From the NCBI GenBank assembly GCA_021734245.1, contig JAIPJH010000001.1, forward strand, positions 1,823 through 65,822: a stretch of DNA of 64,000 bases. Direction: 5' to 3'. Source of the stretch: Candidatus Cloacimonadota bacterium (GTDB lineage: Bacteria > Cloacimonadota > Cloacimonadia > Cloacimonadales > TCS61). Positions 5,347-56,346 of this stretch are shown here, one piece after another. The notes under the pieces are model-generated. The model was not told where the DNA came from. It saw only the letters and a list, made by a program, of their open reading frames with translations, and did no database searches. Numbering within the stretch: the stretch's first letter is position 1; the number at the start of each line of letters is the position of its first letter. The position numbers and the translations under genes are program-made.

Positions 5347-5355
5347 GAAAATATT

Positions 5356-6222
5356 ATGCAGAGACTCTTGAAAAATCGTCTTTTCTTTTACTTCAAGATA
5401 GTTGTAACGATTATTATCCTGTATTTCGTGTTTCGAAAGATCGATTTAGTTGTTCTAATTAATTCCTTTAAGCAGATTTCACTTCCTGTTATATTGGCAA
5501 TGTTCATCACCACAGTTATCAAGATCTATATAGAATACAAGAACTGGGGACATTATCTTTCCATAAATCCTGACTATAAATTACGTCCTCGAGATATATT
5601 TAAATCTCACATGATCGGTCATTCTCTTAGTTTGATTATTCCCGGTGGTTTGGGAGTAGCCGGAAAAGTTTTCTTCTTGGATAATTCCAAAGGTCACACT
5701 TTTATGTCTTTGGGAGTAGAAAAATTTTTCCAAATTTGGATAAATCTGCTTTTTGCCAGTTTTGCTGCTATTTTCTATTTCAGGAAAATGAATATTCTTA
5801 TTCCGATCGTAGTATTTGTTTTTGTGATATTTCTTCCTCTTTTTATCTATTGGATCAAGCATTTGAATCGCCGAAAAAGCATAGAAAAATATTTCCGAGA
5901 ATACATCAAAATATTACCACGTGTCAGCTTTATGCAGATTACATATATGTTTATAACGATTTTTCAATACTTTGTACTTGTAAATGTATTTCTGAAGTAT
6001 CACATTTTTTCGGCAATTATCTCGGTTCCATTGATTTTGTCTTCAAATCTAATTCCGATAACTTATGCCGGTTTGGGGCTCAGGGAAAAATTTGCGATTG
6101 AAATATTCTCAAAATATGCAATTTCTTCCGAAATAGCTGTAGCTGTAACTTTAACGATTTTCTTGTTTAATTCAGTTCTTCCAGCTTTGGTAGGAATTGT
6201 TTTATTTATGAGAAAAAAATAA
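5356..6222 (+). CDS. polytopic membrane protein, flippase-like / lysylphosphatidylglycerol-synthase-TM (UPF0104) type
   Basis: 288 aa with multiple hydrophobic helices. The N-terminus (KNRLFFYFKIVVTIIILYFVFRKIDL) is typical of this family. Starts 10 nt after the preceding gene. Confidence 0.5.
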   Translation: MQRLLKNRLFFYFKIVVTIIILYFVFRKIDLVVLINSFKQISLPVILAMFITTVIKIYIEYKNWGHYLSINPDYKLRPRDIFKSHMIGHSLSLIIPGGLGVAGKVFFLDNSKGHTFMSLGVEKFFQIWINLLFASFAAIFYFRKMNILIPIVVFVFVIFLPLFIYWIKHLNRRKSIEKYFREYIKILPRVSFMQITYMFITIFQYFVLVNVFLKYHIFSAIISVPLILSSNLIPITYAGLGLREKFAIEIFSKYAISSEIAVAVTLTIFLFNSVLPALVGIVLFMRKK

Positions 6223-7257: not shown

Positions 7258-7297
7258 AAATTATTCAATTTTGGTGTCAATATATAATAAAAAACTT

Positions 7298-7523
7298 GTA
7301 TCCCCGAAAAATTTGGAAGGTATAAACCTGATTTATTTTAATAAATGAAATTGTTGCTATTCTACCCGTCTAAAATCTTATCCAGCAAAGCCCACGAATT
7401 TTTTAACCTGTGAAATCAATTCAATTTCACCGGGTCATTCATGGGAATCTTGATACGAGAAATATTTCTGACAACGGTTTCAACCGTTTACACTGAAAAA
7501 TAAATATTTTTCGGGTGATGCGC
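7298..7523. repeat. TIR-bounded hairpin-rich element, copy A (about 226 bp)
   Basis: Left end GTATCCCCGAAAAATTT and right end AAATATTTTTCGGGTGATGCGC are inverted repeats. The core is near-identical to 18214..18550. Internal hairpins: CCCACGAAT...ATTCATGGG and AACGG-TTTCAA-CCGTT. Confidence 0.75.
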
Positions 7524-9110: not shown

Positions 9111-10397
9111 TTAACGAAAAATCACTATGAAATCAATTTCATAGGGTTTGGAAATCTCGTTTTCATTAAAGTCATTTGCCAAAATGGAAAGTTTATAGGA
9201 AGAATAGTTATCCAGATCATGCAAAGGTACAAATTTACACAATTTGGAATCAGCCTGTACGATCTTTATAGGAACGGTCTTTTTCTGTTCCATATCTTGC
9301 AAAGAGATATTCAGATCTGTATTTCGGATAATCTCATCAAACACAATTGAAAAAGTTTGATAAGATTCTTTAATCGTATCTCCATTTTTTGGATAAGAAT
9401 CCAGGATTACCGGTGGAATAGAATCGTTTATAACCGCACCATCAAACACGATAGAAACACTGTCATTTATATTATTTTTTGTGTCGAGTAAATCATAGAA
9501 ATATGCAATATATTGCAAGGTATCCATCTTGGAAGTGATGAGTGTAAGAACGTCAATCTCCAAATATTCAGACAGAATATCATGTTTTTTGGGAAAGGAA
9601 TCTTTGGTTGTAATTTCGACTTTTGAAAAATCCAGAACAGGTTCATCAAAAGTGATTTGGACTTGATTATCCCAAACAGCATTTGCTGATCTGATCGCAG
9701 GCTTCAAAGTATCTTCATAAGCCATTTCCACATTAATTGAAGTAAATTCTGCAGAATCAAGATAAGCATAAAAATATGGTTCGTCTCCATAATCATATTT
9801 TTTGTTCCTGTTCTTGTCTGCATAAGCTTCCAGAATATGATCGGTATTATTCAAATTGGTAAATTCAAAGGCAGACGTGTTGATTATTTGACTCGTAATA
9901 AATGTGGAATCTGGAGCCATTAAAGTAAAATTTACCTTAAGATTTTTATCTTCATTTTTTTCCCAGTTCAGCTTTCCGCTTATTCTGTTATCATTTAGTT
10001 TTCCACTGGAAAAAATGTAGGTATATTGCTTATCAAGTTCGTTATTGTGTTCACCTTTTATCGAAGTTTGAAAAGTGAAAAAATAATTCGTGTTCTCTTC
10101 CAGTTTTTCCAGGATTTTAATGGTTAATACGTTTTTATCCCATTTGAATTTCTTCTGCAATATCGGAGGATAAATATACAATCCGCTGATTATTGTATTT
10201 CTTTCGATTGGTTTGGAAAACACAACTTCTATATCGGAATCTGAAATATCAGATAACTCCAGGGGCGAAATGGACAATATTTCCGGTTTTACAGTATCTT
10301 TTTTTCCGCCGGTAGGACTTTTTCGATGACCACAACCCAAAATCAGCAGCATTGCAGCAACAGTCAAAAAAATAATTTGAATTGTTCTCTTTGTCAT
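9111..10397 (-). CDS. lipoprotein with Ig-like domain, function unknown
   Basis: Lipobox LILGC. SbsA-Ig-like segment DTVKPEILSISPLE...IEVVFSKPIE. The ATG at 10397 overlaps the recR stop (TGATG); the ORF track uses the TTG at 10400. Confidence 0.6.
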   Translation of the reverse strand: MTKRTIQIIFLTVAAMLLILGCGHRKSPTGGKKDTVKPEILSISPLELSDISDSDIEVVFSKPIERNTIISGLYIYPPILQKKFKWDKNVLTIKILEKLEENTNYFFTFQTSIKGEHNNELDKQYTYIFSSGKLNDNRISGKLNWEKNEDKNLKVNFTLMAPDSTFITSQIINTSAFEFTNLNNTDHILEAYADKNRNKKYDYGDEPYFYAYLDSAEFTSINVEMAYEDTLKPAIRSANAVWDNQVQITFDEPVLDFSKVEITTKDSFPKKHDILSEYLEIDVLTLITSKMDTLQYIAYFYDLLDTKNNINDSVSIVFDGAVINDSIPPVILDSYPKNGDTIKESYQTFSIVFDEIIRNTDLNISLQDMEQKKTVPIKIVQADSKLCKFVPLHDLDNYSSYKLSILANDFNENEISKPYEIDFIVIFR

Positions 10398-18097: not shown

Positions 18098-18213
18098 AAC
18101 AACTCCATGCATTTTTTTTGGAAAAATGTTTAGAAGTGTTTTTTTGTCAATGAGAAATTACATTCCGTTAAATAGTAATTATTTAGCATTATTTGGGACA
18201 GAATATCTGAAAC

Positions 18214-18550
18214 CACGCATCCCCCCGAAAAAATTGAAAGGTATAATCCTAATTTATTGTAATAGCTGAAATTGTTATTATTTTTCCCGTCCAAAACCTT
18301 ATCCAGCAAAGCCCACGAATTTTTAACCTGTGAAATCAATTCAATTTCAGCGGGTCATTCGTGGGAAACCAGATACCGAATATAAAATTTATAACGGTTT
18401 CAACCGTTTTGCAAATTATAAACCATTGAAATGGTTATTTCAAAAAGATTTGAAAATTTACCCATGAATAAATTCATGGGCTTGAAATATTGAAATTCAT
18501 GCTTCTTCTTATTGATTTCTGAAAAAGAATTTTTTTTCGGGGGATGCGTG
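18214..18550. repeat. TIR-bounded hairpin-rich element, copy B (about 337 bp)
   Basis: About 22-bp terminal inverted repeats: CACGCATCCCCCCGAAAAAATT and AATTTTTTTTCGGGGGATGCGTG. The core is shared with 7298..7523. There is an extra module of about 110 bp with hairpins AACCAT-TGAA-ATGGTT and CCCATGAAT-AA-ATTCATGGG. Confidence 0.8.
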
Positions 18551-26251: not shown

Positions 26252-26304
26252 ACAAACCTCCAATTAATAAGAACAATAATTTTATATTTTTTTATTTTAT
26301 CAAG

Positions 26305-26366
26305 AAATAAAGAAAATTCTTAAATTTGCCTATCCCAGATTCAGAGCAGCGAGGAATTCTTTCGAC
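26305..26366. promoter_or_regulatory. conserved upstream block shared with 48009..48196 (5' region of a T9SS cargo gene)
   Basis: AAATAAAGAAAATTCTTAAATTTGCCTATC and CAGAGCAGCGAGGAATTCTTTCGA recur almost identically upstream of the 45751..47991 gene. Confidence 0.55.
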
Positions 26367-29331: not shown

Positions 29332-31180
29332 TCGTTCCCGGCGGCTTGGTCGTCACATCATAGAGCAGATTGCCAACTCCATTTATTTTTTGAATAAGTC
29401 TTGTAAGCCGTTCAAATTCAGCAAAATCCATTTCATAAACGCTGGCAGTCATGGCATCGGTAGAACAAACCGGACGTATAACGAAAGCCTGTTTTTTATT
29501 TTGATAAAGTGGAAGCGCTACTACCGGCATTTGCCAGATCTCCGGAATGTGATCAGTTTCCTGTCGCAAAACTGCATCTACTTTCCGCAATTTATCCATG
29601 ACCGGTTTTTCCAGGAAAAGTTTCTGTAGCTTTAAATCGACCGGCTGCCAACTGAACACGATCCTGTTGACTGATATTAGTTTATTGATAGCTCTTGATG
29701 CTCCAATTCTCAGATTTTCCCATTCCGGTTTAAAATCTGACTTGAACCAAACTACCGCAGGATGATGATAGGTGCGGAAATCTCCCTGCACACCTACGCT
29801 CTTGATCGGCAGGATTTTTCCTTCTAAACCAAATTCTATTAATATCTCGTTTAGCATTTTTTCTTCTTTTTCAAAATCATCCCGAGTTGTATAAGTGTCA
29901 TCCTGAGCGGAGTCGAAGGATACACTCTTCTTTGTCGCACTTCGACTACGCTCAGTGTGACAGTCATTTATCTCTGTATCCGAGCAGATAACACGGATCG
30001 CTAAACCTGGACCGGGAAAAGGATGACGATGGACCAGTTTTTTGGGTAATCCAAGTTCTTCTCCCAGTTTGCGAACTTCATCTTTGTAGAGTTCTTTAAT
30101 CGGCTCAATCACACGTCCTTCTGCGATGAGTTTTGCAATTTCATCCACTCGATTGTGATGTGTTTTTATCTTAGCTGCTTTATCTGTAGAACCACTTTCG
30201 ATTGTATCGGGATAGATCGTTCCCTGCACCAGCATCAATTCTGCTTCTTTTTCCAATGCTGCCAGTTCCTGATTGGCAATATCAACGAAAAGTTTACCGA
30301 TTATCAAGCGTTTTGCTTCCGGTTCTACAACGCCCTTAAGTTCGTTCAGATAAAGTTCTTCCGCAGCGATGATCTTGATATTTTCGAAACCGAGTTTTTC
30401 AAAATGTTCCATGATCTCTTTGGATTCGTTCTTGCGCATGAATCCTGTGTCTACATGGATGGAAAAAATATTTTCATTCCCAACTGCCTGAATGCAAAGT
30501 TCCAGAGCAACGAGGGAATCAACTCCACCTGAAAGCAGTAGAACTAATTTTCTGCCTTTTGCTTCTTTTCGAATTTGCTGAATCAGTGTTTCTTTGAAAT
30601 TTTCTGCTTTCCAGTCGCGTTTTTCAGTACAAACTGAAATGAACTTATCCAGTATATTCAAGCCGTTTGTAGTATGTGTCACTTCCGGATGGAACTGCAC
30701 TCCAAAAAATTTCTGATCTTTTGATTCATAAGAAGCAACTTTTATCGAATCGGAATAAGCTGTGATGCGGCATGAATCAGGTAATTCTGAGACATGATCA
30801 CCATGACTCATCCAAACTGTTTGCTGAGAATCCAAACCAGAAAACAAAGCAGAATTGTTTTCGCAGTTGATCGAAGTGAATCCGTATTCTTTGTTTTCTC
30901 CGCTTTCGATCGTTCCACCCAGCATGGCAGCCAGGATTTGATGTCCGTAGCAGATTCCCAGAATTGGACTCTGAATTTCTTCGATTTCAATGTTTATACG
31001 ATACGCATCTTCAGCATTTACCGATTGCGGTCCGCCGGAAAAGATGATGCCCCCAATTTCGTCTGTAACTTCAAATTCTTCGGGGTGATAGATCTCGCTG
31101 TAAACTCCCAGGTTTCTAACTCGACGAGCAATTAGATGTGTGTATTGTCCGCCAAAATCTATAATTGCAATTTTATTCAT
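29318..31180 (-). CDS. guaA: GMP synthase (glutamine-hydrolysing), long form
   Basis: N-terminal class I GATase (GICYGHQ), ATP-PPase P-loop (SGGVDS), and C-terminus KPPGTIEWE. At 620 aa it has an extended two-part C-terminal region and an in-frame repeat-derived insert. Confidence 0.9.
   Translation of the reverse strand: MNKIAIIDFGGQYTHLIARRVRNLGVYSEIYHPEEFEVTDEIGGIIFSGGPQSVNAEDAYRINIEIEEIQSPILGICYGHQILAAMLGGTIESGENKEYGFTSINCENNSALFSGLDSQQTVWMSHGDHVSELPDSCRITAYSDSIKVASYESKDQKFFGVQFHPEVTHTTNGLNILDKFISVCTEKRDWKAENFKETLIQQIRKEAKGRKLVLLLSGGVDSLVALELCIQAVGNENIFSIHVDTGFMRKNESKEIMEHFEKLGFENIKIIAAEELYLNELKGVVEPEAKRLIIGKLFVDIANQELAALEKEAELMLVQGTIYPDTIESGSTDKAAKIKTHHNRVDEIAKLIAEGRVIEPIKELYKDEVRKLGEELGLPKKLVHRHPFPGPGLAIRVICSDTEINDCHTERSRSATKKSVSFDSAQDDTYTTRDDFEKEEKMLNEILIEFGLEGKILPIKSVGVQGDFRTYHHPAVVWFKSDFKPEWENLRIGASRAINKLISVNRIVFSWQPVDLKLQKLFLEKPVMDKLRKVDAVLRQETDHIPEIWQMPVVALPLYQNKKQAFVIRPVCSTDAMTASVYEMDFAEFERLTRLIQKINGVGNLLYDVTTKPPGTIEWE
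29895..29963. repeat. 69-bp imperfect palindromic element embedded in frame in guaA
   Basis: Arms GTGTCATCCTGAGCGGAGTCGAAGGA and CACTTCGACTACGCTCAGTGTGACAG. Related copies at 34414..34442 and 61711..61740. Confidence 0.8.
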
Positions 31181-31207
31181 TAATCCTCTTTCATATCTAA
31201 TACTAAG

Positions 31208-31338
31208 CTCCCCTTTGTAAGGGGAGGGCGAGGGGTTTTGGCGGATAAATAACCAATCTTGATTTTATAAAACCCCCTCCCAGTGGAATATCCACAGGAT
31301 TCCACGGGATAAATTTTGTCCCCCTTCTAAAGGGGGAC
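31208..31338. repeat. composite GC-rich four-hairpin repeat (family R2), copy a
   Basis: CTCCCCTT-TGTA-AGGGGAG; GAGGGGTTTTG...AAAACCCCCTC; GTGGAAT...ATTCCAC; GTCCCCCTT-CTA-AAGGGGGAC. Near-identical to 38109..38239. Confidence 0.85.
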
Positions 31339-31971: not shown

Positions 31972-32358
31972 TTAATCTATTATATTAGGAATCCTCTCGA
32001 AATCAAATCCTTTTCTATTATTGGGGAAATTGATAATTACACCTAATTTATAACCAGTTGCTTTTAGATAATTAAATAGCTGTGCTTTGTGAAATTTATT
32101 AATTTGATTTTCACATTTTAGTTCGATTATAATTTTCTCATCAATGATTAAGTCCGCTTTATAATCCGCAATAACTTCACCTCGATAAACAATTTGAATA
32201 AGTTTCTGAGATTCAACAAAAAAATCAAGTAATTGGAGTTCAATTACTAAAGCTCTTTCATAAACTTTCTCTAAAAAGCCATTCCCAAGTCTTTTCCGAA
32301 CTTCAATACAAGCTTTTTTAATCTTGTAACACTCATCCATATAAATTAAGCTTTTCAT
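31972..32358 (-). CDS. GxxExxY-family protein (PD-(D/E)XK-like)
   Basis: 128 aa with GNGFLEKVYERALVIEL, the GxxExxY motif. Confidence 0.75.
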   Translation of the reverse strand: MKSLIYMDECYKIKKACIEVRKRLGNGFLEKVYERALVIELQLLDFFVESQKLIQIVYRGEVIADYKADLIIDEKIIIELKCENQINKFHKAQLFNYLKATGYKLGVIINFPNNRKGFDFERIPNIID

Positions 32359-32406: not shown

Positions 32407-33513
32407 TCATTTCGCTGCAAATTCATCCAACCAACCAGCAGTTTTACTGATCTTTCTGGTAAATATCCTGCCATTATTTCGAGCATCTTTAGCCTGATGA
32501 TATTTGAAGATCATCTCATCGTTTTTGGGTCCAATAATTTCAACTTTTCCAGTTTTATGCGACATCACATATCGAAATCTTTTGCTGTGGCCATTCAGCA
32601 TAGTTTTAGCTTTTTCCACAATTCGATAACCCTCCAGAATTGGAAGTTGAAAATGATTTTTTACTCGTTTCACGGGTCTGCATTGGAAAACATAATAAGG
32701 ATTTATTCCGCTAGAAACCAACTTATTCTGCAGCTCTGCTAAGATGTTAGGATCGTCGTTCACACCTCTCATCAAAACAGTTTGATTATTCACGATCACT
32801 CTACTTTTTAGTAATTTCGAAATTGCTCTGCGTAATTCCGGTGTGATTTCTCTGGGATGATCTACATGAGTTACAAAATATATCTGTTTGATCTTTGAAT
32901 GTTTTTTTAGAGCTGCTAATAATTCATAACTATCATAGATTCTGCTTGGCAAGTAAACAGGAACTTTCGTCCCAAATCTTATGAAATCAATATGCGGAAT
33001 GGTTGTAAGTTTTTCCAGGAATCGGATAATAATTTTAGTAGAAAGTACCAAGGGATCTCCCCCAGTTATCAAAATGTTATTTACTTCCGGATGTTTATTG
33101 ATATACGTAACTGCTTTATTTATGTTATTTAAGACTTCATCTTTAGTAACACCGACCAGTCTTTTCCTGAAGCAGAAGCGACAATAGCTTGCACAACGAT
33201 GAGTTGACAAGATTAATACTGTTTGTGGATATTTATGTTGAAATCCTAAAAACTTTGTATTGCTCAATTCACCGCTTGTATCATAAGAGCCAGTAACATC
33301 CATTTCCTGTTTGGCAGGTATCACCATTTTCTTTATTGGATCATCCGAATCTTTGAAATCAATAAGAGACAAATAGTGACGTGAGACGCTCATTGGATGT
33401 ATATCAATAACCTTTTTCAGCCATTTTTCATCATCTTTGGAAATTGGTAAAAACTTCTTCAATTGATCAATCGTGATAATGTTCTTTTTCAATTCATTTT
33501 TCCAGTACATCAA
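32407..33513 (-). CDS. KamA-family radical SAM protein (lysine 2,3-aminomutase-like)
   Basis: 368 aa with the CASYCRFCFRK cluster motif and ...ILITGGDPL... typical of the KamA/EpmB family. Confidence 0.8.
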   Translation of the reverse strand: MMYWKNELKKNIITIDQLKKFLPISKDDEKWLKKVIDIHPMSVSRHYLSLIDFKDSDDPIKKMVIPAKQEMDVTGSYDTSGELSNTKFLGFQHKYPQTVLILSTHRCASYCRFCFRKRLVGVTKDEVLNNINKAVTYINKHPEVNNILITGGDPLVLSTKIIIRFLEKLTTIPHIDFIRFGTKVPVYLPSRIYDSYELLAALKKHSKIKQIYFVTHVDHPREITPELRRAISKLLKSRVIVNNQTVLMRGVNDDPNILAELQNKLVSSGINPYYVFQCRPVKRVKNHFQLPILEGYRIVEKAKTMLNGHSKRFRYVMSHKTGKVEIIGPKNDEMIFKYHQAKDARNNGRIFTRKISKTAGWLDEFAAK

Positions 33514-33547: not shown

Positions 33548-34840
33548 TTAAAATAATTTTTTTCTTTTACCAATATCTTTTCGATAAAACATATCATCAA
33601 AAAAGTAATTATTCACCTTCTCATAAGCTTTTTGGATAGCATTATCCAGAGTTTCACCATGAGAAACAATATTTAAAACGCGACCACCTGAAGTTACAAT
33701 TTCACCATCCATTTTTTTTGTTCCGGCATGAAAGATCAATTCATCAGCTTTTTCCAAACCACAAATTGGATAACCTTTTTTGTAAGCTTTGGGATAACCG
33801 CCGGAAACCAGTACCACATCCACAAAAAAACCAGCGTTGAACTCCATCTGATAATCTTTTAATGAACCATCAAAGCAGCTTAAAACCAGTCTCAGCAAAT
33901 CACTTTTCATCGCTGGCAGCACAACTTCAGTTTCCGGATCACCCAAGCGGACATTGTATTCCAAAACCTCGGGTCCTTTTTCTGTGATCATCAAGCCAAA
34001 ATAAACTATCCCTTTGAAATTGAAACCTTCTGCTTTTATACCTTTCATGGTCGGAAGAATTACATCCTTCTCGATTTGCTTCTTAAGTTCTTCATTGTAA
34101 AATGGAACCGGGCAGAAAGCTCCCATACCGCCGGTATTGGGTCCTTTATCGCCATCCAAAAGTTGTTTATGATCTTGCGAAGGCAGAAGAAGCTGATAAT
34201 TTTCTCCATCTGTAAAAGCCAGAATAGATAACTCATCACCGATCAGTTTTTCTTCGATCAGATAAGATGCATCTTCCCCGTATTTGGAATGAATTTCCTG
34301 CAGAGCAGATTTTGCTTCTTCCAGTTTTGAGCAGACAAAAACTCCCTTTCCTGCTGCTAAACCATCATATTTTATTACACAATTACCATTGAGCTTTTTA
34401 ATTACTGACAAGCTGTCTCCTTCGACTCCGCTCAGGATGACATTTTTTTTATTTTTTTGTGCTTTTTTATGGCAATTTCCAAATTCCCAGAAATCTGCAG
34501 TAGCAACTCCATATTTCTGCATGAATTTTTTAGCAAAGATCTTGGATCCTTCCAGTTGAGCTCCGGCTTTATCCGGCCCAAAAACCTTAACCGGTGTTTC
34601 GGCAAAATAGTCTACAATTCCGTTTGCCAGAGGATCTTCCGGCCCCACAAAGATCAGTTCGATCAATTCTTGAGCACAAAATTCCTTGATATCTGCAAAA
34701 TCATTTACATCAATTTTTACATTATTTTTCGTTCCACCATTTCCTGGTAGAACATACACTTTATCAGCTAAATCGCTTTGTTCCAATTTCCAGGCGATGG
34801 CATGTTCCCTGCCACCAGAACCGATAACTGCAATATTCAT
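33548..34840 (-). CDS. purD: phosphoribosylamine-glycine ligase
   Basis: MNIAVIGSGGREHAIAWKL start (ATG after AGAGG; the track starts 6 codons upstream). ATP-grasp DGLAAGKGV motif. Carries a repeat-derived in-frame insert. Confidence 0.9.
   Translation of the reverse strand: MNIAVIGSGGREHAIAWKLEQSDLADKVYVLPGNGGTKNNVKIDVNDFADIKEFCAQELIELIFVGPEDPLANGIVDYFAETPVKVFGPDKAGAQLEGSKIFAKKFMQKYGVATADFWEFGNCHKKAQKNKKNVILSGVEGDSLSVIKKLNGNCVIKYDGLAAGKGVFVCSKLEEAKSALQEIHSKYGEDASYLIEEKLIGDELSILAFTDGENYQLLLPSQDHKQLLDGDKGPNTGGMGAFCPVPFYNEELKKQIEKDVILPTMKGIKAEGFNFKGIVYFGLMITEKGPEVLEYNVRLGDPETEVVLPAMKSDLLRLVLSCFDGSLKDYQMEFNAGFFVDVVLVSGGYPKAYKKGYPICGLEKADELIFHAGTKKMDGEIVTSGGRVLNIVSHGETLDNAIQKAYEKVNNYFFDDMFYRKDIGKRKKLF
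34414..34442. repeat. single arm of the GTCATCCTGAGCGGAGTCGAAGGA palindromic family, in frame in purD
   Basis: The reverse complement of 34414..34442 contains GTCATCCTGAGCGGAGTCGAAGGA, identical over 24 nt to the guaA copy. It is translated as VILSGVEGDS. Confidence 0.8.
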
Positions 34841-36301: not shown

Positions 36302-36407
36302 TTTTTCTCTCCTTAATCTACCGCTAAGGTCGCAAAAACGCTAAGCGATATCTTCTTTTATTTATTTTATAAATTATTCTTCAAGCTACGCTTTCCAGAT
36401 TTTTTTA

Positions 36408-36460
36408 CCATTGAAAAGACTTAACTGCAAGCATTTCTCTGATTGAAGTCTTTTCAAGGT
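36408..36460. repeat. CCTTGAAAAG-type hairpin repeat (family R3), copy a
   Basis: ACCATTGAAAAGACTT - loop containing AACTGCAAG - GAAGTCTTTTCAAGGT. Confidence 0.7.
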
Positions 36461-36465
36461 TTGCA

Positions 36466-38070: not shown

Positions 38071-38108
38071 AATTTCCTCAAGTTATCTTTTGTAGAATCT
38101 CCACTAAG

Positions 38109-38239
38109 CTCCCCTTCGTAAGGGGAGTTTGAGGGGTTTTGTTTGAAAGTAATATAAATTCCACTATCAGAAAACCCCCTCCCAGTGGAATATCCATAGG
38201 ATTCCACGGGATAAATTTTATTCCCCCTTCTAAGGGGGA
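38109..38239. repeat. composite GC-rich four-hairpin repeat (family R2), copy b
   Basis: Same order of hairpins as 31208..31338. This is the source of spurious ORFs 38078..38269 and the start of 38139..38663. Confidence 0.85.
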
Positions 38240-38246
38240 TAGATAT

Positions 38247-40007
38247 TTACACATATTGTTTTCCTTCATATTTTTTATAATTTATAATATTTTTTACATG
38301 GAAGAAAATAAGTTCTTCCAACTCAGGTTCAAATTTTACTTTTTCAAATTCATCAGGAAGAATTTCTGCCATTTCGATTGCTTTCCTGATATTTTTTTTA
38401 TATATTTTTTCAATATCATTAGGTTCTTTTTGTTTGAACTTTTTTGCTTCAAAAACTTTCTCAATATCGAGTTCTATCGGTTTTTCATCATCGCCTGCAG
38501 CCATGTGTTTCCAATCACCGGCTTTCATATCAAAAACATATTGCGGAATGAAGCGATGGGCATATTTAACGGCAAATTTTATAGCTTCGATTATGTATTC
38601 AAATTCATCTTCAGACAAGGCATAATGCAAGTTCAAACGAACCCAACCGGGTTTGATTCCTGAATATCCGACATTTGTTATCATGCAGCGATAATAATTT
38701 GACGTCTGCATTTCGATGTGCATAAGTTTATGTCCGTATGGTCCGGCGCAGGAACAGCCGGCTCGAGTCTGAATTCCAAACAGATCATTCAGAAGTCGTG
38801 TTACAAATTTGGAATGCAGGATTCTGTCGCCATGCACGATGTTGAAGGGAATTATAGGCACCTTCTTTTCCACCTCCTGAGGTCCGTAAAAAAGAATCTT
38901 ATCTTCACATTCAAAAGCTTTTTTGAAATTGGAATAATAATAGTTTTCAATTTTCTCTATCGCTTCCAGCCCAACTTTTTCTTTAACCTGGAATGCGAGT
39001 GAAGTCTTGATAGCCTGCAAAATTCCCGGTGTTCCTGGTTTTTCTCGGGTTTCGATGTCGTGAATATACTCTTCGCCTTCTGGAGAAACGTAATCTACCG
39101 TTCCACCAGCAGCGACGGTGGGAGGAAGTTGTTTCGGATAAATATTTTCATTGAAGATCAGAATTCCCGAACTTCCCGGTCCGCCCAGAAACTTGTGCGG
39201 AGAAAGGTAGATTGCATCAAAATAACTTTCTGCGTCTCGATTCATATCAATCTCTATATAAGGTGCACAAGCAGCAAAATCAAAACAGGCGATTGCTCCG
39301 TTTCTATGCAATATCTTAGCAACTTCGTAAACAGGAGTTTTTAATCCTGAAACATTGGAAGCGGCAGAGAAAGAACCGATCTTGGGGCGATGATCATATT
39401 GGGGATCTGAAACCATCTTTTCCAAAGCATCCAGATCGATCTCTTCGTTCTCATTCATAGGCACTTCCACTACATCACAGAGAGTTTGTCGCCACATAAT
39501 CTCATTGGAATGATGTTCGTATGGCCCCACAAAAACTATCGGTTTATGATTCTTAATGAAATCTTTCAATTCCTTGTTGCATCCAGTTCTGGAAGAATCA
39601 CGTTCCAAGCAGCTATTCAGAAATAGATTTATTTTTTCGCGAGTTGCCGGAGGCCAGTAAACACCTAAAATCTGCTGCAATCTTGTAATACCGCCGGTTG
39701 TGCCCGATTCTGTAAAAATGATTTTTCCGTGTTTTCCTGCATTCACCAATTTCTTGATGTTTTTCTCGGCATCGTGCAAAAGTTCAGTCATGGTTTTGCC
39801 GGTGAAATCATCTTCGGTATGTGTGTTGGCATAATACTGCATAATGTGCATCATATAGTTTTCGATGGAATACAAACAGCGTCCGCTGGCAGTGTAATCG
39901 GCATAAACTAACGGCTTTTCACCAAAAGGAGTTTCAAACATTTTGTTACGACCGATAATATCCTTTCTCAGCCATTCCAGATTTTTGATCAGTTCTTTTG
40001 CTTTCAT
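38247..40007 (-). CDS. aminotransferase class V-fold (fold-type I) PLP-dependent enzyme, cysteine-desulfurase-like, specificity unknown
   Basis: 586 aa with YADYTASG near the N-terminus and SPHKFLGGPGSSGIL (the PLP lysine region). The start overlaps the upstream ATPase stop (ATGA). Confidence 0.65.
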   Translation of the reverse strand: MKAKELIKNLEWLRKDIIGRNKMFETPFGEKPLVYADYTASGRCLYSIENYMMHIMQYYANTHTEDDFTGKTMTELLHDAEKNIKKLVNAGKHGKIIFTESGTTGGITRLQQILGVYWPPATREKINLFLNSCLERDSSRTGCNKELKDFIKNHKPIVFVGPYEHHSNEIMWRQTLCDVVEVPMNENEEIDLDALEKMVSDPQYDHRPKIGSFSAASNVSGLKTPVYEVAKILHRNGAIACFDFAACAPYIEIDMNRDAESYFDAIYLSPHKFLGGPGSSGILIFNENIYPKQLPPTVAAGGTVDYVSPEGEEYIHDIETREKPGTPGILQAIKTSLAFQVKEKVGLEAIEKIENYYYSNFKKAFECEDKILFYGPQEVEKKVPIIPFNIVHGDRILHSKFVTRLLNDLFGIQTRAGCSCAGPYGHKLMHIEMQTSNYYRCMITNVGYSGIKPGWVRLNLHYALSEDEFEYIIEAIKFAVKYAHRFIPQYVFDMKAGDWKHMAAGDDEKPIELDIEKVFEAKKFKQKEPNDIEKIYKKNIRKAIEMAEILPDEFEKVKFEPELEELIFFHVKNIINYKKYEGKQYV

Positions 40008-41155
40008 TTTTGACCTTTATTTAATTTTATTGATTTTAACCATTCCTCAAATACAGGATTCTGAATCTGATAAGTACCATTAGTTTTAATAACAAGGTTT
40101 TTATTAATTAAACTGTTTAATGTAGTTGTTAAAGATGATGTTTGCGGTAAATCATGTTCTTCTCGAAATCTACTTGAAAACAGCTTATTATCTCTTAACC
40201 CAGAAAGAGCATGTAAGGTTCTTCTTTGATTTGAACTTAATTGATCGTAAATATTCTGAAATATCATGGATTGGCTAGCGATAATTCGATTCATCCAAAG
40301 ATCTTCAAAATCGGGGTTATCTTCACTAATTCCCTCATATATCAATTCCCAAACAACAGCTGCAAAATATTGAGTAAAATGTGGATGGTTTCTCGATTTA
40401 GTCAATATTGAGTTTATCGTTATATCTCTGATTTTCAAATTTGTATCGGAAAATCTTTTTGTAATAAATACTCTTAGATCCTCTTTTTTGATAGGATGGA
40501 TAGGTAGTTTGAAACCATATTCATAAAAAGGTGAATTGTAATCGGTAAAAACAAATTCCATCAATGATTTATTGCTTTCCAAAAAAATATATGACACTTT
40601 AGATTGATGTTGGAATTCTGTTCTCATCCAATTTATTAAAAATGGTTTTATTCTTTGGACTTCCTGAAACTCGTCAAAAGCAATACAAATTTTCTTTTGG
40701 GATTTTTCTGCTATCTGCTGAGGTATCTTCAATATCGTTTCAATATCATTAGAATTTTCTAACTGTTTAATTTCAAATGATACAGAAGGTTGACCGAAAT
40801 TGTCGAAAGATATTTTTGGATATAAATTCTTGAAATATTCCCCAATTTTTTGAGATAGTTTTTTAATTTCAGTTCTCCAGTCGAATAAACATTTTGCTAG
40901 TAAAGATGCGTATTTTCGAGCAAATTCATCTAAGGATTCGATTCCGTAAAAATCAAAATAAAGAGTAATGATATCGGGTTCATTAAGCTCTTTAAAAGCT
41001 TTCAGGATCAGTGATGATTTACCATACCGTCTTGGTGAATTGATCCAAAATGATTTAGAGTTGATGATTGCCCTTTTAATCTGCTTCAATTCCTCTGCCC
41101 GGTTACAAAAGTTGTCACCTTCTACAATCTCTCCATATTTAAACGGATTTTCCAT
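40004..41155 (-). CDS. P-loop ATPase (archaeal-ATPase/AAA-like family) with C-terminal winged-helix-like region
   Basis: Walker A SPRRYGKSSL and Walker B-like ICIAFDEFQ. The start is set at the ATG after AGGAGGGGG; the track begins 8 codons upstream at a TTG. Confidence 0.6.
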   Translation of the reverse strand: MENPFKYGEIVEGDNFCNRAEELKQIKRAIINSKSFWINSPRRYGKSSLILKAFKELNEPDIITLYFDFYGIESLDEFARKYASLLAKCLFDWRTEIKKLSQKIGEYFKNLYPKISFDNFGQPSVSFEIKQLENSNDIETILKIPQQIAEKSQKKICIAFDEFQEVQRIKPFLINWMRTEFQHQSKVSYIFLESNKSLMEFVFTDYNSPFYEYGFKLPIHPIKKEDLRVFITKRFSDTNLKIRDITINSILTKSRNHPHFTQYFAAVVWELIYEGISEDNPDFEDLWMNRIIASQSMIFQNIYDQLSSNQRRTLHALSGLRDNKLFSSRFREEHDLPQTSSLTTTLNSLINKNLVIKTNGTYQIQNPVFEEWLKSIKLNKGQK

Positions 41156-41172
41156 ACCCCCTCCTAATTCAG

Positions 41173-41243
41173 GTCGCAATATTGCGACTCGTTATTTAGC
41201 GACCTATGTATTACGCCAAACTGCGTTGCGCATTTTTGCGCAA
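41173..41243. promoter_or_regulatory. cluster of operator-like palindromes upstream of the ATPase/PLP operon
   Basis: Perfect 16-bp palindrome GTCGCAATATTGCGAC (41173..41188), nested AGGTCGC...GCGACCT, and TTGCGCA-TTTT-TGCGCAA (41226..41243). Confidence 0.4.
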
Positions 41244-47991: not shown

Positions 47992-48008
47992 CTTCCCTCC
48001 AAAAAAAT

Positions 48009-48196
48009 AAATAAAGAAAATTCTTAAATTTGACTATCACCGTGGCAGAGCCAAGGTGTATTTCGCTAAATTTATTTCAGCAAGCTGAAAATCGAATTTT
48101 CATTATTTACCCCTCTCCGGCAACTGCCGTATCTCCCCTCAAACAGGGGAGAAAATTTGGAAAACCCCGATGCAGAGCAGCGAGGAATTCTTTCGA
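48009..48196. promoter_or_regulatory. second copy of the T9SS-cargo upstream block, split by a repeat-containing insertion of about 130 bp
   Basis: 48009..48038 matches 26305..26335 and 48169..48196 matches 26336..26366. The insert includes the hairpin TCTCCCCT-CAAAC-AGGGGAGA (48133..48152). Confidence 0.55.
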
Positions 48197-49264: not shown

Positions 49265-49313
49265 TAAAACTCCAATCTTAAATCAAACCTCTCTGCGAAA
49301 CTTCGTTTCTCTT

Positions 49314-49336
49314 CTCCCCTTACAAAGGGAGCTTTT
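49314..49336. repeat. isolated CTCCCCTT-ACAA-AGGGAG hairpin followed by a plus-strand T-run
   Basis: Same hairpin type as the first module of family R2. Lies between guaB and purM. Confidence 0.55.
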
Positions 49337-52246: not shown

Positions 52247-52369
52247 AAGGTTTATAAGACTATTCTTTCGACTAAACCTTTTCAATGGTTCTAACTCATT
52301 TTCAACCTTGAAAAGAACTGACACAAAAGAATTCCTCCAATTGAAGTCTTTTCAAGGTTTCATTCTTTC
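52247..52369. repeat. two tandem CCTTGAAAAG-type hairpins (family R3), copy b
   Basis: GAACCTTGAAAAGGTTT...AAACCTTTTCAATGGTTC and AACCTTGAAAAGAACT...GAAGTCTTTTCAAGGTT. The pyrEF stop codon lies in the last arm. Confidence 0.75.
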
Positions 52370-53840: not shown

Positions 53841-53910
53841 GTCCCCCTTCATAAGGGGGAACAAAATTTATCCCGTGGAATCCTGTGGATATTCCACAGG
53901 GAGGGGGTTT
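53841..53910. repeat. partial family R2 repeat, copy c, inverted relative to copies a and b
   Basis: GTCCCCCTT-CATA-AGGGGGA, then CCGTGGAATCCTGTGGATATTCCACAGGGAGGGGGTTT. Confidence 0.8.
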
Positions 53911-53936
53911 CTCATTTAATTTAATTTTCATAAATC

Positions 53937-55256
53937 TCATCGAACCCCTCTGTTCTGAACAAATTCATAATTTGTGCAGAACATCTCCCCTTCAAAGGGG
54001 AGCTTAACTTTCCCACCAACAAAACAAATCTTGATTTCACAACCTGCTTTCATTCCTTCAAACGGTGAATACTTTGCTTTTGTCTGGAATTTTTCAGCTT
54101 CTATCTTCCAATTTTTATCAGGATCGATCACGATCAGATCGGCAATATTTCCAACTTGAATCTCTCCTCGTTTTTCGATGTTAAAAATTTCTGCAGCATT
54201 TCCACTGATCAACTGCGAATATCTTTTTAATGAAATGTGACCTTTATTTACTAACCAGAAAGTCATCGGAATTGCAGTTTCCAAACCGGGAAAACCGGAT
54301 GGAGCATTGGAATATTCTTGCTTCTTTTCTTCCAGTGAATGTGGTGCGTGATCTGTTCCCAGACAATCAACGGTTCCATCTTTGATAGCAACTAACAATG
54401 CTAGGTTATCTTCTTTTGTCCGTAATGGCGGATTTATCTTACCAAAATTATCCACCTGCTTTAAAATTGTTTCATTCAATATCAAATGATGCGGAGTTAC
54501 TTCGCAGAAAATGTTATCGTTTAATTGCTTTGCTTTGCGGATCAACTCGATTTCTTCTTTTGTAGAAACATGGCAGATATATAGTTTATTACCAATTTCT
54601 TCTGCCAGCTTCAGCACCAGTTTAGTTCCTGCGATTGAGGCTTCTCGATTACGAAGTTCATTGTGATTCAGGATTGTTTTATCAGAAATCTTTTTTTGCC
54701 ATTTATCTAAAAAGGACTGCATTTCGGAATGAACCAACACAACTTTTTCAAATTCTTTTGCAAGCTGGAAAATTTCCTCTAATTTGGCAGGATCTTCTAC
54801 AACTACATTGGAACTGGAACCAGCCAGAAAAACTTTTATCCCAGCCACGTCATCAAAATTGGATTTCAATATTTCTTTCATTTCTTCTAAATTATGTGAT
54901 GCAGCACCCAAATGGAATTTGTAGTTAATATGAGATTTTTTTGCTGCTTTTCTTTTTGCCGCCAATCCTTTCAAATCAATTGTTGCCGGTTTAGTATTCG
55001 GCATATCCATTATTGTTGTAATTCCACCGGCAATTGCCGCTTTCGATGCAGTTTCCCAGGTTTCCTTGTAAGCCATTTCCATGTCGCGAACATGAACATG
55101 CGGATCGATCATACCAGGGAGAACAAACAAATTAGAACAATCGATCATTTTATCGTGTTCAGGATTTTCTGCTCCGAAGTATGATATCAATTCATCTTCG
55201 ATCAGGATGTTCCTGATTCCTGCTGGTGTTCGGCAATTAGTTAGGAGTGTTTTCAT
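53937..55256 (-). CDS. pyrC: dihydroorotase
   Basis: 439 aa with the DPHVHVRD metal-binding motif and amidohydrolase fold. Confidence 0.9.
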   Translation of the reverse strand: MKTLLTNCRTPAGIRNILIEDELISYFGAENPEHDKMIDCSNLFVLPGMIDPHVHVRDMEMAYKETWETASKAAIAGGITTIMDMPNTKPATIDLKGLAAKRKAAKKSHINYKFHLGAASHNLEEMKEILKSNFDDVAGIKVFLAGSSSNVVVEDPAKLEEIFQLAKEFEKVVLVHSEMQSFLDKWQKKISDKTILNHNELRNREASIAGTKLVLKLAEEIGNKLYICHVSTKEEIELIRKAKQLNDNIFCEVTPHHLILNETILKQVDNFGKINPPLRTKEDNLALLVAIKDGTVDCLGTDHAPHSLEEKKQEYSNAPSGFPGLETAIPMTFWLVNKGHISLKRYSQLISGNAAEIFNIEKRGEIQVGNIADLIVIDPDKNWKIEAEKFQTKAKYSPFEGMKAGCEIKICFVGGKVKLPFEGEMFCTNYEFVQNRGVR

Positions 55257-55297
55257 AATTTATATTTGATCCCTGAAAAGAATATCAAGAATGTAAG

Positions 55298-55551
55298 TCT
55301 CCCTTCGTAAGGGAGAATAAAAGAGGGTTTGCACAAAGAAAAAAAAATACTTAATAATCTTTCAAAACCCCTCTGCCTTCGGCATCTCCCCTTCCAAAAG
55401 GGAGCTTTTTGTTTGTTTATTCTTGTTCCTAAACTCCATATGGTAATACCATTTCCAACCATTGCGAAGGTCGAAAAAAGCAAGAAGTTCGAAAACCATG
55501 CGCAAGGTTTCACACACCCCACGGCTAAAGCCGCACCCCTCTCAAGAGGGG
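55298..55551. repeat. hairpin-saturated spacer (degenerate R2 modules and related CCCCT/AGGGG hairpins)
   Basis: TCTCCCTT-CGTA-AGGGAGA; AGAGGGTTTG...CAAAACCCCTCT; CTCCCCTT-CCAA-AAGGGAG plus a T-run; CCCCTCT-CA-AGAGGGG (55536..55551). This is the source of spurious ORF 55253..55567. Confidence 0.7.
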
Positions 55552-55563
55552 AATTTTCACGTC

Positions 55564-56346
55564 TCAAAATTCTATCCTTTTACCGGTTGCATCTCGGTGA
55601 TATTTGCCAAATTCCGTGAGTTGTTCTACAAGTTTCTTGGGTAAAACCGGCCCTTCCACACAAAGTCGTATTCCGATTGGATCGATCGTACAATTCCCGC
55701 AAATTCCAATGGCGCATTTCATATATCTTTCGAATAAAAATTCATACTCCAGATCTTTCAAAAGTGGCTGCAGAGCTTTCATCATCATTTCCGGACCAGC
55801 AGCATAAACATGATCGAATTTCTGCTTTTCCATCGCTTTTTCCGCCAGATCGACCGAAGTTCCTTCCCTACCTAAACATCCAAGTTGGGTAATATTTTGA
55901 TATTCCACACCTAATTCTCTGAATTTATTACAAAAAACCAGATCTTCTTTAGATTTTGCACCATTTACAACAGTTACTTTTGCGCCATTTTGCAGAAGCT
56001 CTTTTGCCAGAAAATACAGTGGTGGTGTGCCATAACCACCTCCAACAAGTAAAACATTTCCATCTGATACAAAAAAAGAGGACCCAAAAGGCCCTCTTAC
56101 AGAAACGTAGTCGCCTACTTGCTTCTGGAAGAGTCGAGTCGTAAATTCTCCAATCCGTTTAACTGTTATCATAAACTCGTTTGAAGTACAATCTGCAATG
56201 GAAAATGGTTTTTCTCCACCTTCAAAATCGGTGAGCATAATAAACTGTCCCGGTTTGGCTGTCAGATCATGTGCAAAAACAAATGATTTTATATCTTCTG
56301 CTTCGTCAATTATCCTCGCAATTTTGATCGTTGATCTTTTATTCAT
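55564..56346 (-). CDS. pyrK: dihydroorotate dehydrogenase (class 1B) electron-transfer subunit
   Basis: 260 aa. FAD/NAD-binding ferredoxin-reductase fold and a C-terminal 2Fe-2S Cys cluster (CAIGICGNC...C). Confidence 0.85.
   Translation of the reverse strand: MNKRSTIKIARIIDEAEDIKSFVFAHDLTAKPGQFIMLTDFEGGEKPFSIADCTSNEFMITVKRIGEFTTRLFQKQVGDYVSVRGPFGSSFFVSDGNVLLVGGGYGTPPLYFLAKELLQNGAKVTVVNGAKSKEDLVFCNKFRELGVEYQNITQLGCLGREGTSVDLAEKAMEKQKFDHVYAAGPEMMMKALQPLLKDLEYEFLFERYMKCAIGICGNCTIDPIGIRLCVEGPVLPKKLVEQLTEFGKYHRDATGKRIEF

Follow-up and report, generated by a model that had tools for sequence, protein, structure and literature searches.

What is a GC-rich block of hairpins doing between the genes of a long purine and pyrimidine operon? 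The question is raised by a 64,000-nt stretch of a Candidatus Cloacimonadota genome (contig JAIPJH010000001.1 of assembly GCA_021734245.1, positions 1,823 to 65,822), which we call the window and in which several intergenic spacers contain a hairpin-forming element, R2. We think that R2 is probably a non-coding mosaic of GC-rich palindromic modules, and not a purine- or pyrimidine-specific regulator. It would belong to a dispersed family, found in one clade of Candidatus Cloacimonadota, that resembles repetitive extragenic palindromic (REP) sequences and bacterial interspersed mosaic elements (BIMEs) or else BOX elements. Comparisons with related genomes show that copies insert at the DNA level, and in both orientations, into spacers and into the final codons of genes. 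They also show that modules are gained and lost, and that one of them, H3, is a discrete hairpin element of ~36 nt.

The window is AT-rich (~37% GC), and one long array of purine and pyrimidine genes occupies ~29-58 kb of it, with nearly all of the genes there on the - strand (guaA, purN, purD, purC/E, purH, purQ, purL, purM, guaB, pyrI, pyrB, pyrF/E, pyrC, pyrK, and pyrD). The initial annotation, made from the letters of the window alone, had described a composite of about 130 bp with a fixed order of hairpins. The composite is real, and its sequences lie within 1-6 nt of the sites that had been reported. Both of the copies that had been placed at 31208..31338 and 38109..38239 were confirmed; their limits are now 31202-31338 (c1) and 38103-38239 (c2). 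A third copy, c3, had been described as inverted and partial (53841..53910). It is inverted, but it is full-length (53841-54002). The degenerate copy at 55298..55405, c4, has the same architecture, with a small hairpin (GCCTTCGGC) in the place of H3. This gives three full-length composites plus one degenerate relative (Table 1). We write the modules as H1-[Hx]-H2-[H3]-H4, where brackets mark optional modules.

A repeat search aligned c1 with c2 in two blocks: 31202-31240 with 38103-38141 and 31269-31337 with 38171-38239, both at 90% identity. The ~30-nt interior between these blocks, which is enclosed by the long-range stem H2, is unrelated between the two copies. c3 gave inverted matches of 96% over 55 nt and 91% over 67 nt, and it contains an additional AT-rich hairpin, Hx. 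H1, H3, and H4 are palindromes of 19-37 nt; the H3 stem has 11 bp with one bulged base and a ~9-nt loop. Just eight hairpins in the window are perfect by our thresholds (a stem of at least 7 bp with at least 5 G:C pairs), and 8/8 are within R2-family elements; every one of them is either intergenic or in the final codons of a gene. Ten block-shuffles contained 0-2 such hairpins each. Fold energies, which the initial annotation had proposed as a check, were strongly negative: c1 and c2 each fold into four hairpins (-56.5 and -57.2 kcal/mol; z ~ -4), c3 reaches -69.8 kcal/mol (z = -7.7), and the z-score of c4 is -3.2. The elements had also been described as GC-rich islands, and the element-bearing spacers do have a GC content of 0.36-0.43, as compared to 0.17-0.39 for the other spacers (all but two at or below 0.35).

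To see if these sites are occupied in relatives, we chose genomes via homologs of purH (contigs L067-L070) and pyrC (L071-L073) and compared their contigs to the window. In L067 and L068 (purH 80% identical), the purN-guaA spacer is 56 nt and does not contain the element. The start of purH lies within the end of the aminotransferase gene in L069 (87%) and L070 (79%); at this junction, the window has c2 and another ~45 nt with a new ribosome-binding site and start codon. c1, c2, and c4 are not present in any of the related genomes that we examined. This comparison of spacers, which had been suggested along with the fold energies, revealed insertion polymorphism.

The pyrC-pyrF site, where c3 lies, is different: its orthologs in L071 (pyrC 71% identical) and L072 (76%) have H1-Hx-H2-H4 without H3. 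The sequence of Hx varies among the three genomes while its pairing is retained. In L073, the site is element-free, and pyrC has 420 amino acids instead of 437-439. H3 also varies within a genome. L002, a Cloacimonadota-like contig from a metagenome, has three near-identical copies of the composite, of which one includes a 36-nt block (CCAGTGGAATATCCATAGGATTCCACGGGATAAATTTA) that corresponds to H3 and two do not. H3 is thus a clean indel of ~36 nt, both within one genome and between orthologous copies. The c3 composite is thus old and shared, with H3 as a unit of gain or loss.

Across nine copies from five genomes, the module order H1-[Hx]-H2-[H3]-H4 is kept. The fixed order in the initial annotation therefore stands, but the composition is not fixed, as Hx and H3 are optional. 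Between copies, the GC-rich arms are kept while the loops and the interior of H2 are unrelated. L009 has a hairpin at the H4 position with the arms TCTCTC/GAGAGA in place of TCCCCC/GGGGGA.

The link to purine and pyrimidine genes that the window had suggested does not hold up. An exact 22-nt core of H3 has two matches in metagenomes, both in Cloacimonadota-like contigs with a full composite (L001 and L002; one of these is from the same metagenome-assembled genome (MAG) as L072). In L001, the composite has a radical-SAM gene on one side and an M28 peptidase gene on the other, and in L002 it is between DUF4175 and DUF559 genes. As described above, the orthologous junctions in L067-L070 are empty. 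The same core has no matches in the GTDB representative genomes. A scan of viral contigs found just two identical matches (by chance, or in coding sequence), and blastn found no match to c1 in plasmid and phage collections. The description of R2 as REP/BIME-like and present in both orientations fared better: it is a dispersed palindromic family, with 3 Cloacimonadota copies co-oriented with their flanking genes and 8 in the opposite orientation. The reported location in spacers between co-directional genes holds for all of the Cloacimonadota copies with both neighbors known.

R2 also alters the ends of genes. As noted initially, purN ends within the H4 arm of c1, which contains its last three codons (V-P-L) and its stop codon (TAG, 31327-31329); the C-terminus is ...KTQKVPL* in the window and ...KTQKD* in the orthologs. 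The same is true of pyrC, whose last ~22 codons (stop at 53937-53939) read through H1, Hx, and the 5' arm of H2 in c3. Spurious open reading frames (ORFs) arise from the hairpin blocks, as had been noted; for instance, 55253-55567 has no Pfam match. This matters for annotation. Besides giving rise to false ORFs, the hairpin blocks change the C-termini of real enzymes (purN and pyrC), and in MAGs of this uncultured phylum, a common one in anaerobic digesters, they could be taken for regulators or terminators.

How would such a family spread? A HUH/Y1-type enzyme, similar to the REP-associated tyrosine transposases (RAYTs), may recognize the hairpins in single-stranded DNA, or copies may recombine with each other. 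Once in an operon spacer, R2 would be co-transcribed and would form stem-loops of high stability (-56 to -70 kcal/mol). Such structures would allow sense transcription to read through, and would be at most passive barriers to 3'-exonucleases, or processing points, as for the REP/BIME sequences of E. coli (this and other background on REPs is summarized in PMC5317091). The similarity of the stems might be maintained by selection or by gene conversion among copies.

RAYT genes are present in sister genomes. In L071, a 177-amino-acid ORF between pyrD and pyrK is a RAYT (NCBIfam NF047646, 85 bits; the cutoff is 80), and in L080 this gene occupies the corresponding position. REPIN-like repeats flank the gene in both genomes (GGTTCCAA-N9-TTGGAACC in L071), and the L071 operon has three further copies of the repeats in its other pyr/pur spacers. 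RAYT systems therefore do colonize the spacers of the same operon in sister genomes. Homologs of this RAYT (55-73% identical) are found in Chloroflexota, Cyanobacteria, and Deltaproteobacteria, and a deltaproteobacterial one (L077, 59% identical) is flanked by GGTTCCGA-N9-TCGGAACC. A REP stem can thus remain conserved across phyla along with its RAYT. These repeats are like R2 in being in the same operon and in the same kind of spacer (L071 and L080), in the form of the hairpin (a stem of ~8-12 bp with 9 nt in the loop), and in the conservation of the stem across phyla, with a compensatory change from G:C to A:T. Their sequences (GGTTCCRA..TYGGAACC) are unrelated to the GTGGAAT..ATTCCAC and CCCCTT/AAGGGG arms of R2, and theirs is the only family that we saw beside a RAYT gene. 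The precedent does not make H3, H1, or H4 substrates of a RAYT.

Several observations weigh against our interpretation of R2 as a REP/BIME-like repeat. We searched for RAYT and Y1 genes with IS608 TnpA and an E. coli RAYT, the RAYT from L071, a hidden Markov model of 120 homologs, and tblastn, and found none in the window or in any locus with H3 (0.72 Mb examined). RAYTs were found only in L071 and L077-L081, and the hairpin family that flanks them is not R2. The tetranucleotide GT[AG]G is not present beside H1, H3, or H4 in c1-c3, L001, or L002. (In candidate division WOR-3, GTAG occurs 6 nt upstream, within GCGTAGRGCG flanks, and is not adjacent to the hairpin.) Because there is no GT[AG]G head and no cognate RAYT was found in the 0.72 Mb, we classify R2 as REP/BIME-like and not as REP. 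No target-site duplication is visible at c1, c2, or c3, and the nearest empty sites are too diverged (79-87% identity of the purH protein to that of the window) to give an exact insertion boundary. Also, R2 is clustered: among spacers of at least 40 nt, 6/14 at 31-56 kb (the pur/pyr region) are occupied, versus 0/15 elsewhere in the window. A Fisher test by hand gives ~0.006, with boundaries that were chosen post hoc. The clustering hints at more than random spread; it could reflect local spread, or a benefit within a long operon. Finally, the stems of the pyrC-pyrF composite are kept across genomes with only 71-76% identity of pyrC. Selection for a host function would explain this retention no less well than a selfish repeat would.

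These last two observations lead to the most serious alternative, which we consider possible but doubtful: the composite might be kept for the host's benefit as an intercistronic RNA (an mRNA stabilizer, a boundary for processing or decay, or a translational insulator), with repeat-like spread being secondary. At the pyrC-pyrF site, the stems are kept in three genomes while the loops and interiors diverge, and the clustering in the long pur/pyr operon and the location of copies between co-directional genes would also be expected. A small hairpin downstream of pyrK has a compensatory pair in L071, and the folds are very stable (z from -4 to -7.7). On the other hand, both orientations occur relative to transcription (3 co-oriented versus 8 opposite), and the same junctions are empty in relatives with otherwise the same operon. 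Also, the conservation of the stems is mostly at the level of sequence, with little covariation, and recent copying or gene conversion would be expected to give this pattern. In the case of the orthologous c3 site, the conservation may be due to either selection or concerted evolution.

The terminal hairpins might instead be intrinsic terminators for antisense (+ strand) transcription, which would shield the operon from convergent transcripts, or they might be bidirectional; we think this unlikely. On the + strand, H4 of c1 is followed by a T-run (GTCCCCCTTCTAAAGGGGGAC TTTTTG), the H4-like hairpin of c4 and the hairpin at 49314-49331 are each followed by CTTTTT, and a terminator scan lists all three. 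In L001, H4 is followed by CTGTTTTTTG. However, at c2 and c3 neither of the terminal hairpins leads into a T-run, and terminator-like sites in the region are no more frequent than expected from shuffled sequences (17 vs. 14.6 +/- 4.6; 21 vs. 14.4 +/- 4.1). Termination would also leave H2, H3, and the modular indels unexplained. No copy has a U-tract on the sense strand: on the - strand, which is the gene strand, the scan lists only H1 of c1, with a weak tail (CTTAGTATTA), and there is no real T-run at the terminal hairpins. R2 is therefore not an intrinsic terminator for the sense strand.

It also seems quite improbable that R2 is a classical miniature inverted-repeat transposable element, that is, a deletion derivative of an insertion sequence with a DDE transposase, with H1 and H4 as its terminal inverted repeats. 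H1 (CTCCCCTT..AAGGGGAG) does resemble H4 (TCCCCCTT..AAGGGGGA), so that the ends form imperfect inverted repeats, and the size (135-160 nt) and the insertion polymorphism are suitable. But besides the missing target-site duplications, no parent insertion sequence with R2 ends was seen in the ~0.7 Mb that we examined, and modules that come and go around an unrelated interior are atypical for copies of one master element.

Recurrence within the pur/pyr array might also suggest a cis-regulatory RNA that responds to purines or pyrimidines (a riboswitch, or else a protein-dependent attenuator, for instance a PyrR or PurR site), which we consider very unlikely given the empty orthologous junctions (purN-guaA and upstream of purH in L067-L070, and pyrC-pyrF in L073), the copies between unrelated genes in L001 and L002, the occurrence of both orientations, the hypervariable interior, the lack of matches to Rfam (purine and PyrR families included), and the presence of a different and truly conserved leader upstream of pyrC. 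The Rfam searches found nothing in the whole window at gathering thresholds and nothing relevant over 29-58 kb at E <= 5. The leader (~70 nt, 55440-55510 on the - strand) has two ACCTTGCGNAYGGTT-like direct repeats and is kept in L072, L073, and partly in L071; in the window, c4 sits between it and the start of pyrC. It is a better candidate for a pyr regulatory element than are the GC-rich hairpins.

Within the R2 repeat family, H3 is the part that is worth following up; it is self-nesting, is conserved across phyla, and is not in Rfam. The initial annotation treated this central GTGGAAT...ATTCCAC hairpin as just a part of the module; instead, it is a separate element with a cross-phylum distribution. 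The consensus of H3 is TCCC-A-GTGGAAT-loop-ATTCCAC-GGGA-TAAAT (~36-37 nt). A looser pattern, GTGGAAT-N6-12-ATTCCACGGGAT, matched 62 loci in the GTDB species representatives. One subgroup is a coincidence in coding sequence, while ~40 other matches lie between genes. These have in common a TCCCA on their left and an AAAT on their right, neither of which the pattern demanded, and their loop is variable. The titled records are from Cloacimonadota, WOR-3, Desulfobacteraceae and other Deltaproteobacteria, Puniceicoccaceae (Verrucomicrobiota), Bacteroidales, and Lentimicrobiaceae. Relatives of H3 are thus present in at least five phyla. The sequences that flank H3 differ by lineage, so the distribution is not due to mis-binning of a single organism.

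A covariance-model search found further copies with GTGAAAT/ATTTCAC stems, and this variant is compensatory: pair 12-112 is GC in 42 sequences and AU in 7. In the alignment, 98% of cells are paired, versus 29-64% if the partner is slid, although these counts lean towards structure, since the alignment had been fitted to the model and the pattern that yielded most of its sequences itself fixes the stem. MAGs from WOR-3 have many copies each, some of them as 50-nt tandem pairs. At three WOR-3 loci (L019, L059, and L038), a 35-nt sibling hairpin lies between the GCT and the TCGCA of the apical loop of its host hairpin. Nested insertion is how mobile DNA behaves. Almost all of the WOR-3 copies (17/18) are co-oriented with the upstream gene, which could indicate a role in RNA or, equally, a replication-strand bias of single-strand transposition.

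The neighbors of H3 are diverse housekeeping genes (Pfam on 107 ORFs), with no transposase, cas gene, or recurrent partner gene among them. Rfam had nothing relevant on four H3-bearing loci at E <= 1, and a literature search for H3 sequence strings returned just unrelated primers. We tentatively suggest, as one possible reading, that H3, with its stem written as GTGRAAT/ATTYCAC, is an undescribed, autonomous-looking mini-hairpin element shared by Cloacimonadota, WOR-3, Desulfobacteraceae and other Deltaproteobacteria, Puniceicoccaceae, and Bacteroidota, which would be mobilized in trans by a horizontally transferred HUH/Y1 enzyme or would be the conserved binding hairpin of a widespread protein. 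The unit would insert into repeats of other families as well as into the apical loops of hairpins like itself, and the composites of Cloacimonadota would be its landing pads or carriers. If a cognate enzyme were found, then biology of the REP/RAYT type would extend well beyond the Proteobacteria, and joint horizontal transfer of the repeat and the enzyme could be tested.

We considered and dropped other interpretations of H3. It resembles the tail of a CRISPR I-E repeat (GGGAUAAA), but there are no arrays: copies are single or in 50-nt tandem pairs (L044), 0 of the 107 ORFs is a cas gene, and there is no match to the CRISPR direct repeats in Rfam. A CsrA site (GGA motif) in the loop was rejected, as conservation of the loop does not extend from one lineage to another. 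We also considered a resemblance to parS and set it aside.

Two further observations concern H3-type hairpins. Spacers in WOR-3 are packed with them (L044 1700-2020 and 3300-3420; L019 1229-1307; L059 4335-4411; L038 3759-3863), as 50-nt tandem pairs flanked by GCGTARRGCG direct repeats, as variants (CCCCGTGGAGTA..TACTCCACAGGG), or as hairpins nested in hairpins. Also, two spacers in the window (7266-7489 and 18187-18409) share a ~225-nt repeat (78-83% identical). It holds an H3-like hairpin at 7397-7438 on the - strand (ACCCGGTGAAAT..ATTTCACAGGT; E=0.02 with the covariance model) and a palindrome (AACGGTTTCAACCGTT) that recalls the REP-like motif of Caldithrix abyssi (PMC5317091).

Besides the composites, the initial annotation listed single hairpins of the same type at 48133..48152, 49314..49331, and 55536..55551. 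These do belong to the family, but none is single: they are parts of half-modules. The first two sites correspond to the right half of c4, with ACCCCTCT, a small hairpin, and then CTCCCCT..AGGGGAG. At the third site, the order of the parts is different, with the small hairpin before CCCCTCTCAAGAGGGG. L001 contains a near-identical copy of the module at 48109-48152, just after its composite. The unit at 55520-55551 is kept at the orthologous site in L071, with the one compensatory pair in the small hairpin that was mentioned above (CGGC/GCCG to CGGT/ACCG). c4 and the module at 49.3 kb are not present in L071, L072, and L073. Overall, the 64-kb window has four composites and three half-modules, and the adjoining 7.4 kb (L076) has none.

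Table 1. Locations of R2 composites and half-modules in the window, and of RAYT genes in other contigs (numbered by contig).
Feature	Position	Strand	Place	Parts
c1, composite	31202-31338	+ (element-forward; antisense to flanking genes)	fills purN-guaA spacer	H1 31208-31226; H2 arms 31230-31239 and 31269-31279; H3 31278-31314; H4 31318-31338
c2, composite	38103-38239	+ (element-forward)	between class-V aminotransferase gene and purH	H1 38109-38127; H2 arms 38131-38140 and 38171-38181; H3 38180-38216; H4 38222-38239
c3, composite, full length	53841-54002	- (element-forward; co-oriented with genes)	pyrC-pyrF site	H1 53985-54002; Hx 53951-53983; H2 arms 53940-53950 and 53901-53911; H3 53866-53902; H4 53842-53860
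c4, related unit of the same architecture	55298-55405	+	between conserved pyrC leader and pyrC start codon	H1-like 55298-55316; long stem arms 55322-55331 and 55363-55374; H4-like 55387-55405, then TTTTT
Small hairpin of c4, GCCTTCGGC	55375-55383	+	occupies the place of H3	
Half-module, c4 type	48109-48152	+	purM-downstream spacer	ACCCCTCT; small hairpin 48118-48129; hairpin TCTCCCCTCAAACAGGGGAGA 48132-48152
Degenerate half-module, c4 type	49290-49335	+	guaB-purM spacer	
Hairpin CTCCCCTTACAAAGGGAG	49314-49331	+	within the 49290-49335 half-module; then TTTTT on + strand	
Small hairpin CGGCTAAAGCCG and hairpin CCCCTCTCAAGAGGGG	55520-55551	+	just downstream of pyrK	hairpin CCCCTCTCAAGAGGGG 55536-55551
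RAYT gene, L071	4718-5251			flanks 4600-4700 and 5260-5370
RAYT gene, L080	2501-3034			
RAYT gene, L077	1824-2357			

Other repeats and foreign-looking genes are also found in the window. A conserved AT-rich block (AATAAAGAAAATTCTTAAATTTG...CAGAGCAGCGAGGAATTCTTTCGA) is found upstream of two large proteins with type IX secretion tails (26302-26365, 48006-48051, and 48153-48196; ~7100-7180 in L001). At 48 kb, a part of the block is present twice, and the two occurrences are separated by the c4-type hairpin module and ~70 nt; the arrangement in L001 is the same. A long AT-rich hairpin (CCTTGAAAAGAC...GTCTTTTCAAGG) has two copies, 73% identical, at 36401-36462 (purH-purC) and 52299-52360 (pyrF-pyrB); a relative is at the pyrF-pyrB junction of L071, and Rfam gave just a chance miRNA-like match. 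Genes for a GxxExxY PD-(D/E)XK protein, a radical-SAM protein, and an ATPase_2 protein (31972-32358, 32407-33513, and 40004-41179) are interleaved in the pur/pyr array, the first two between purD and purN and the third adjoining the aminotransferase gene. They are missing from the syntenic operon of L067, L068, and L070, while L073 has a GxxExxY gene at the pyrF/pyrB junction instead. In L002, the DUF559 endonuclease-like gene is bracketed by copies of the composite.

A second repeat family, GTCATCCTGAGCGGAGTCGAAGGA (inverted pair I6), occurs in frame inside genes, at ~29885-29965 (guaA) and 34414-34445 (purD) in the window. It is also found in L070 (11665-11760 and 15085-15175), L072 (~9960-9990), and L002 (5171-5197). 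The window's guaA has a 27-amino-acid insert (DCHTERSRSATKKSVSFDSAQDDTYTT) that L067 and L070 lack. purD has the repeat at the same place in all three genomes, and the window reads the opposite strand (..VILSGVEGD.. vs. ..FDSAQDD..). In related genomes, the repeat fills spacers, and it resembles the Rickettsia palindromic elements. As for the source of the window, its exact purN protein is found in contig JAIPHW010000001.1 (GCA_021735025.1) and its exact pyrC protein in a Candidatus Cloacimonetes bacterium MAG. A scan of the 64 kb for tRNA and tmRNA genes found none. The operon spacers of this clade appear to be a shared habitat for unrelated families of small repeats, namely the R2 mosaic, a RAYT/REPIN system, and an in-frame 'GTCATCCTGAGC...' element. 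They offer a compact natural system for studying the comings and goings of small repeats inside an essential operon.

How does R2, as a dispersed family of palindromes, compare to known repeats? REPs are imperfect extragenic palindromes of ~20-40 nt with a GT[AG]G 5' foot and a cognate, flanked RAYT, and they have tens to hundreds of copies per genome. R2 is like the enterobacterial REP/BIME sequences in that short imperfect palindromes form mosaics with a fixed order of modules, which lie in the spacers that separate co-directional genes and directly behind stop codons. It is also like them in occurring in either orientation, in varying between related genomes, and in that it would form stable stem-loops if transcribed. 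H3 is similar to a REP in size and shape, and the sister genomes have a genuine RAYT and REPIN-like repeats in the same operon. In contrast to REPs, R2 has no GT[AG]G head, and no cognate RAYT was found beside its hairpins. REPs are usually specific to a species or genus, whereas the sequence of H3 is conserved across several phyla. Unlike a BIME, R2 combines different palindromes (H1, H2, H3, and H4) instead of one REP in alternating orientation. The REP/BIME and REPIN/RAYT systems are described by Stern 1984, Gilson/Bachellier, Nunvar 2010, Bertels & Rainey 2011, and Ton-Hoang 2012. In the literature on intergenic palindromes in Cloacimonadota, we found only the paper on Caldithrix abyssi (PMC5317091), and its REP-like palindromic motif differs from R2.

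R2 is also like the Correia elements of Neisseria and the Rickettsia palindromic elements, as these are small palindromes that insert at or inside the ends of genes, are transcribed along with the adjacent genes, and can supply stop or C-terminal codons (as do H4 for purN, ...VPL*, and H1-Hx-H2 for the ~22-amino-acid tail of pyrC). Features of the Correia elements that would set them apart from R2 are defined terminal inverted repeats, a target duplication of TA, and sites for IHF and RNase III. The in-frame insertions in guaA and purD that are similar to Rickettsia palindromic elements are from the other family, GTCATCCTGAGCGGAGTCGAAGGA, and not from R2. The BOX elements of Streptococcus pneumoniae have the form boxA-boxB(n)-boxC. 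Like them, R2 is a modular composite of ~100-200 nt with fixed ends and optional or variable internal modules, and it is strongly folding, intergenic, dispersed, and non-coding, with no mobilizing enzyme assigned. R2 differs from BOX in being from another phylum and in that one of its internal modules is itself a widespread mini-hairpin, and similarity in sequence would not be expected. R2 probably works like a BIME or a pneumococcal BOX element.

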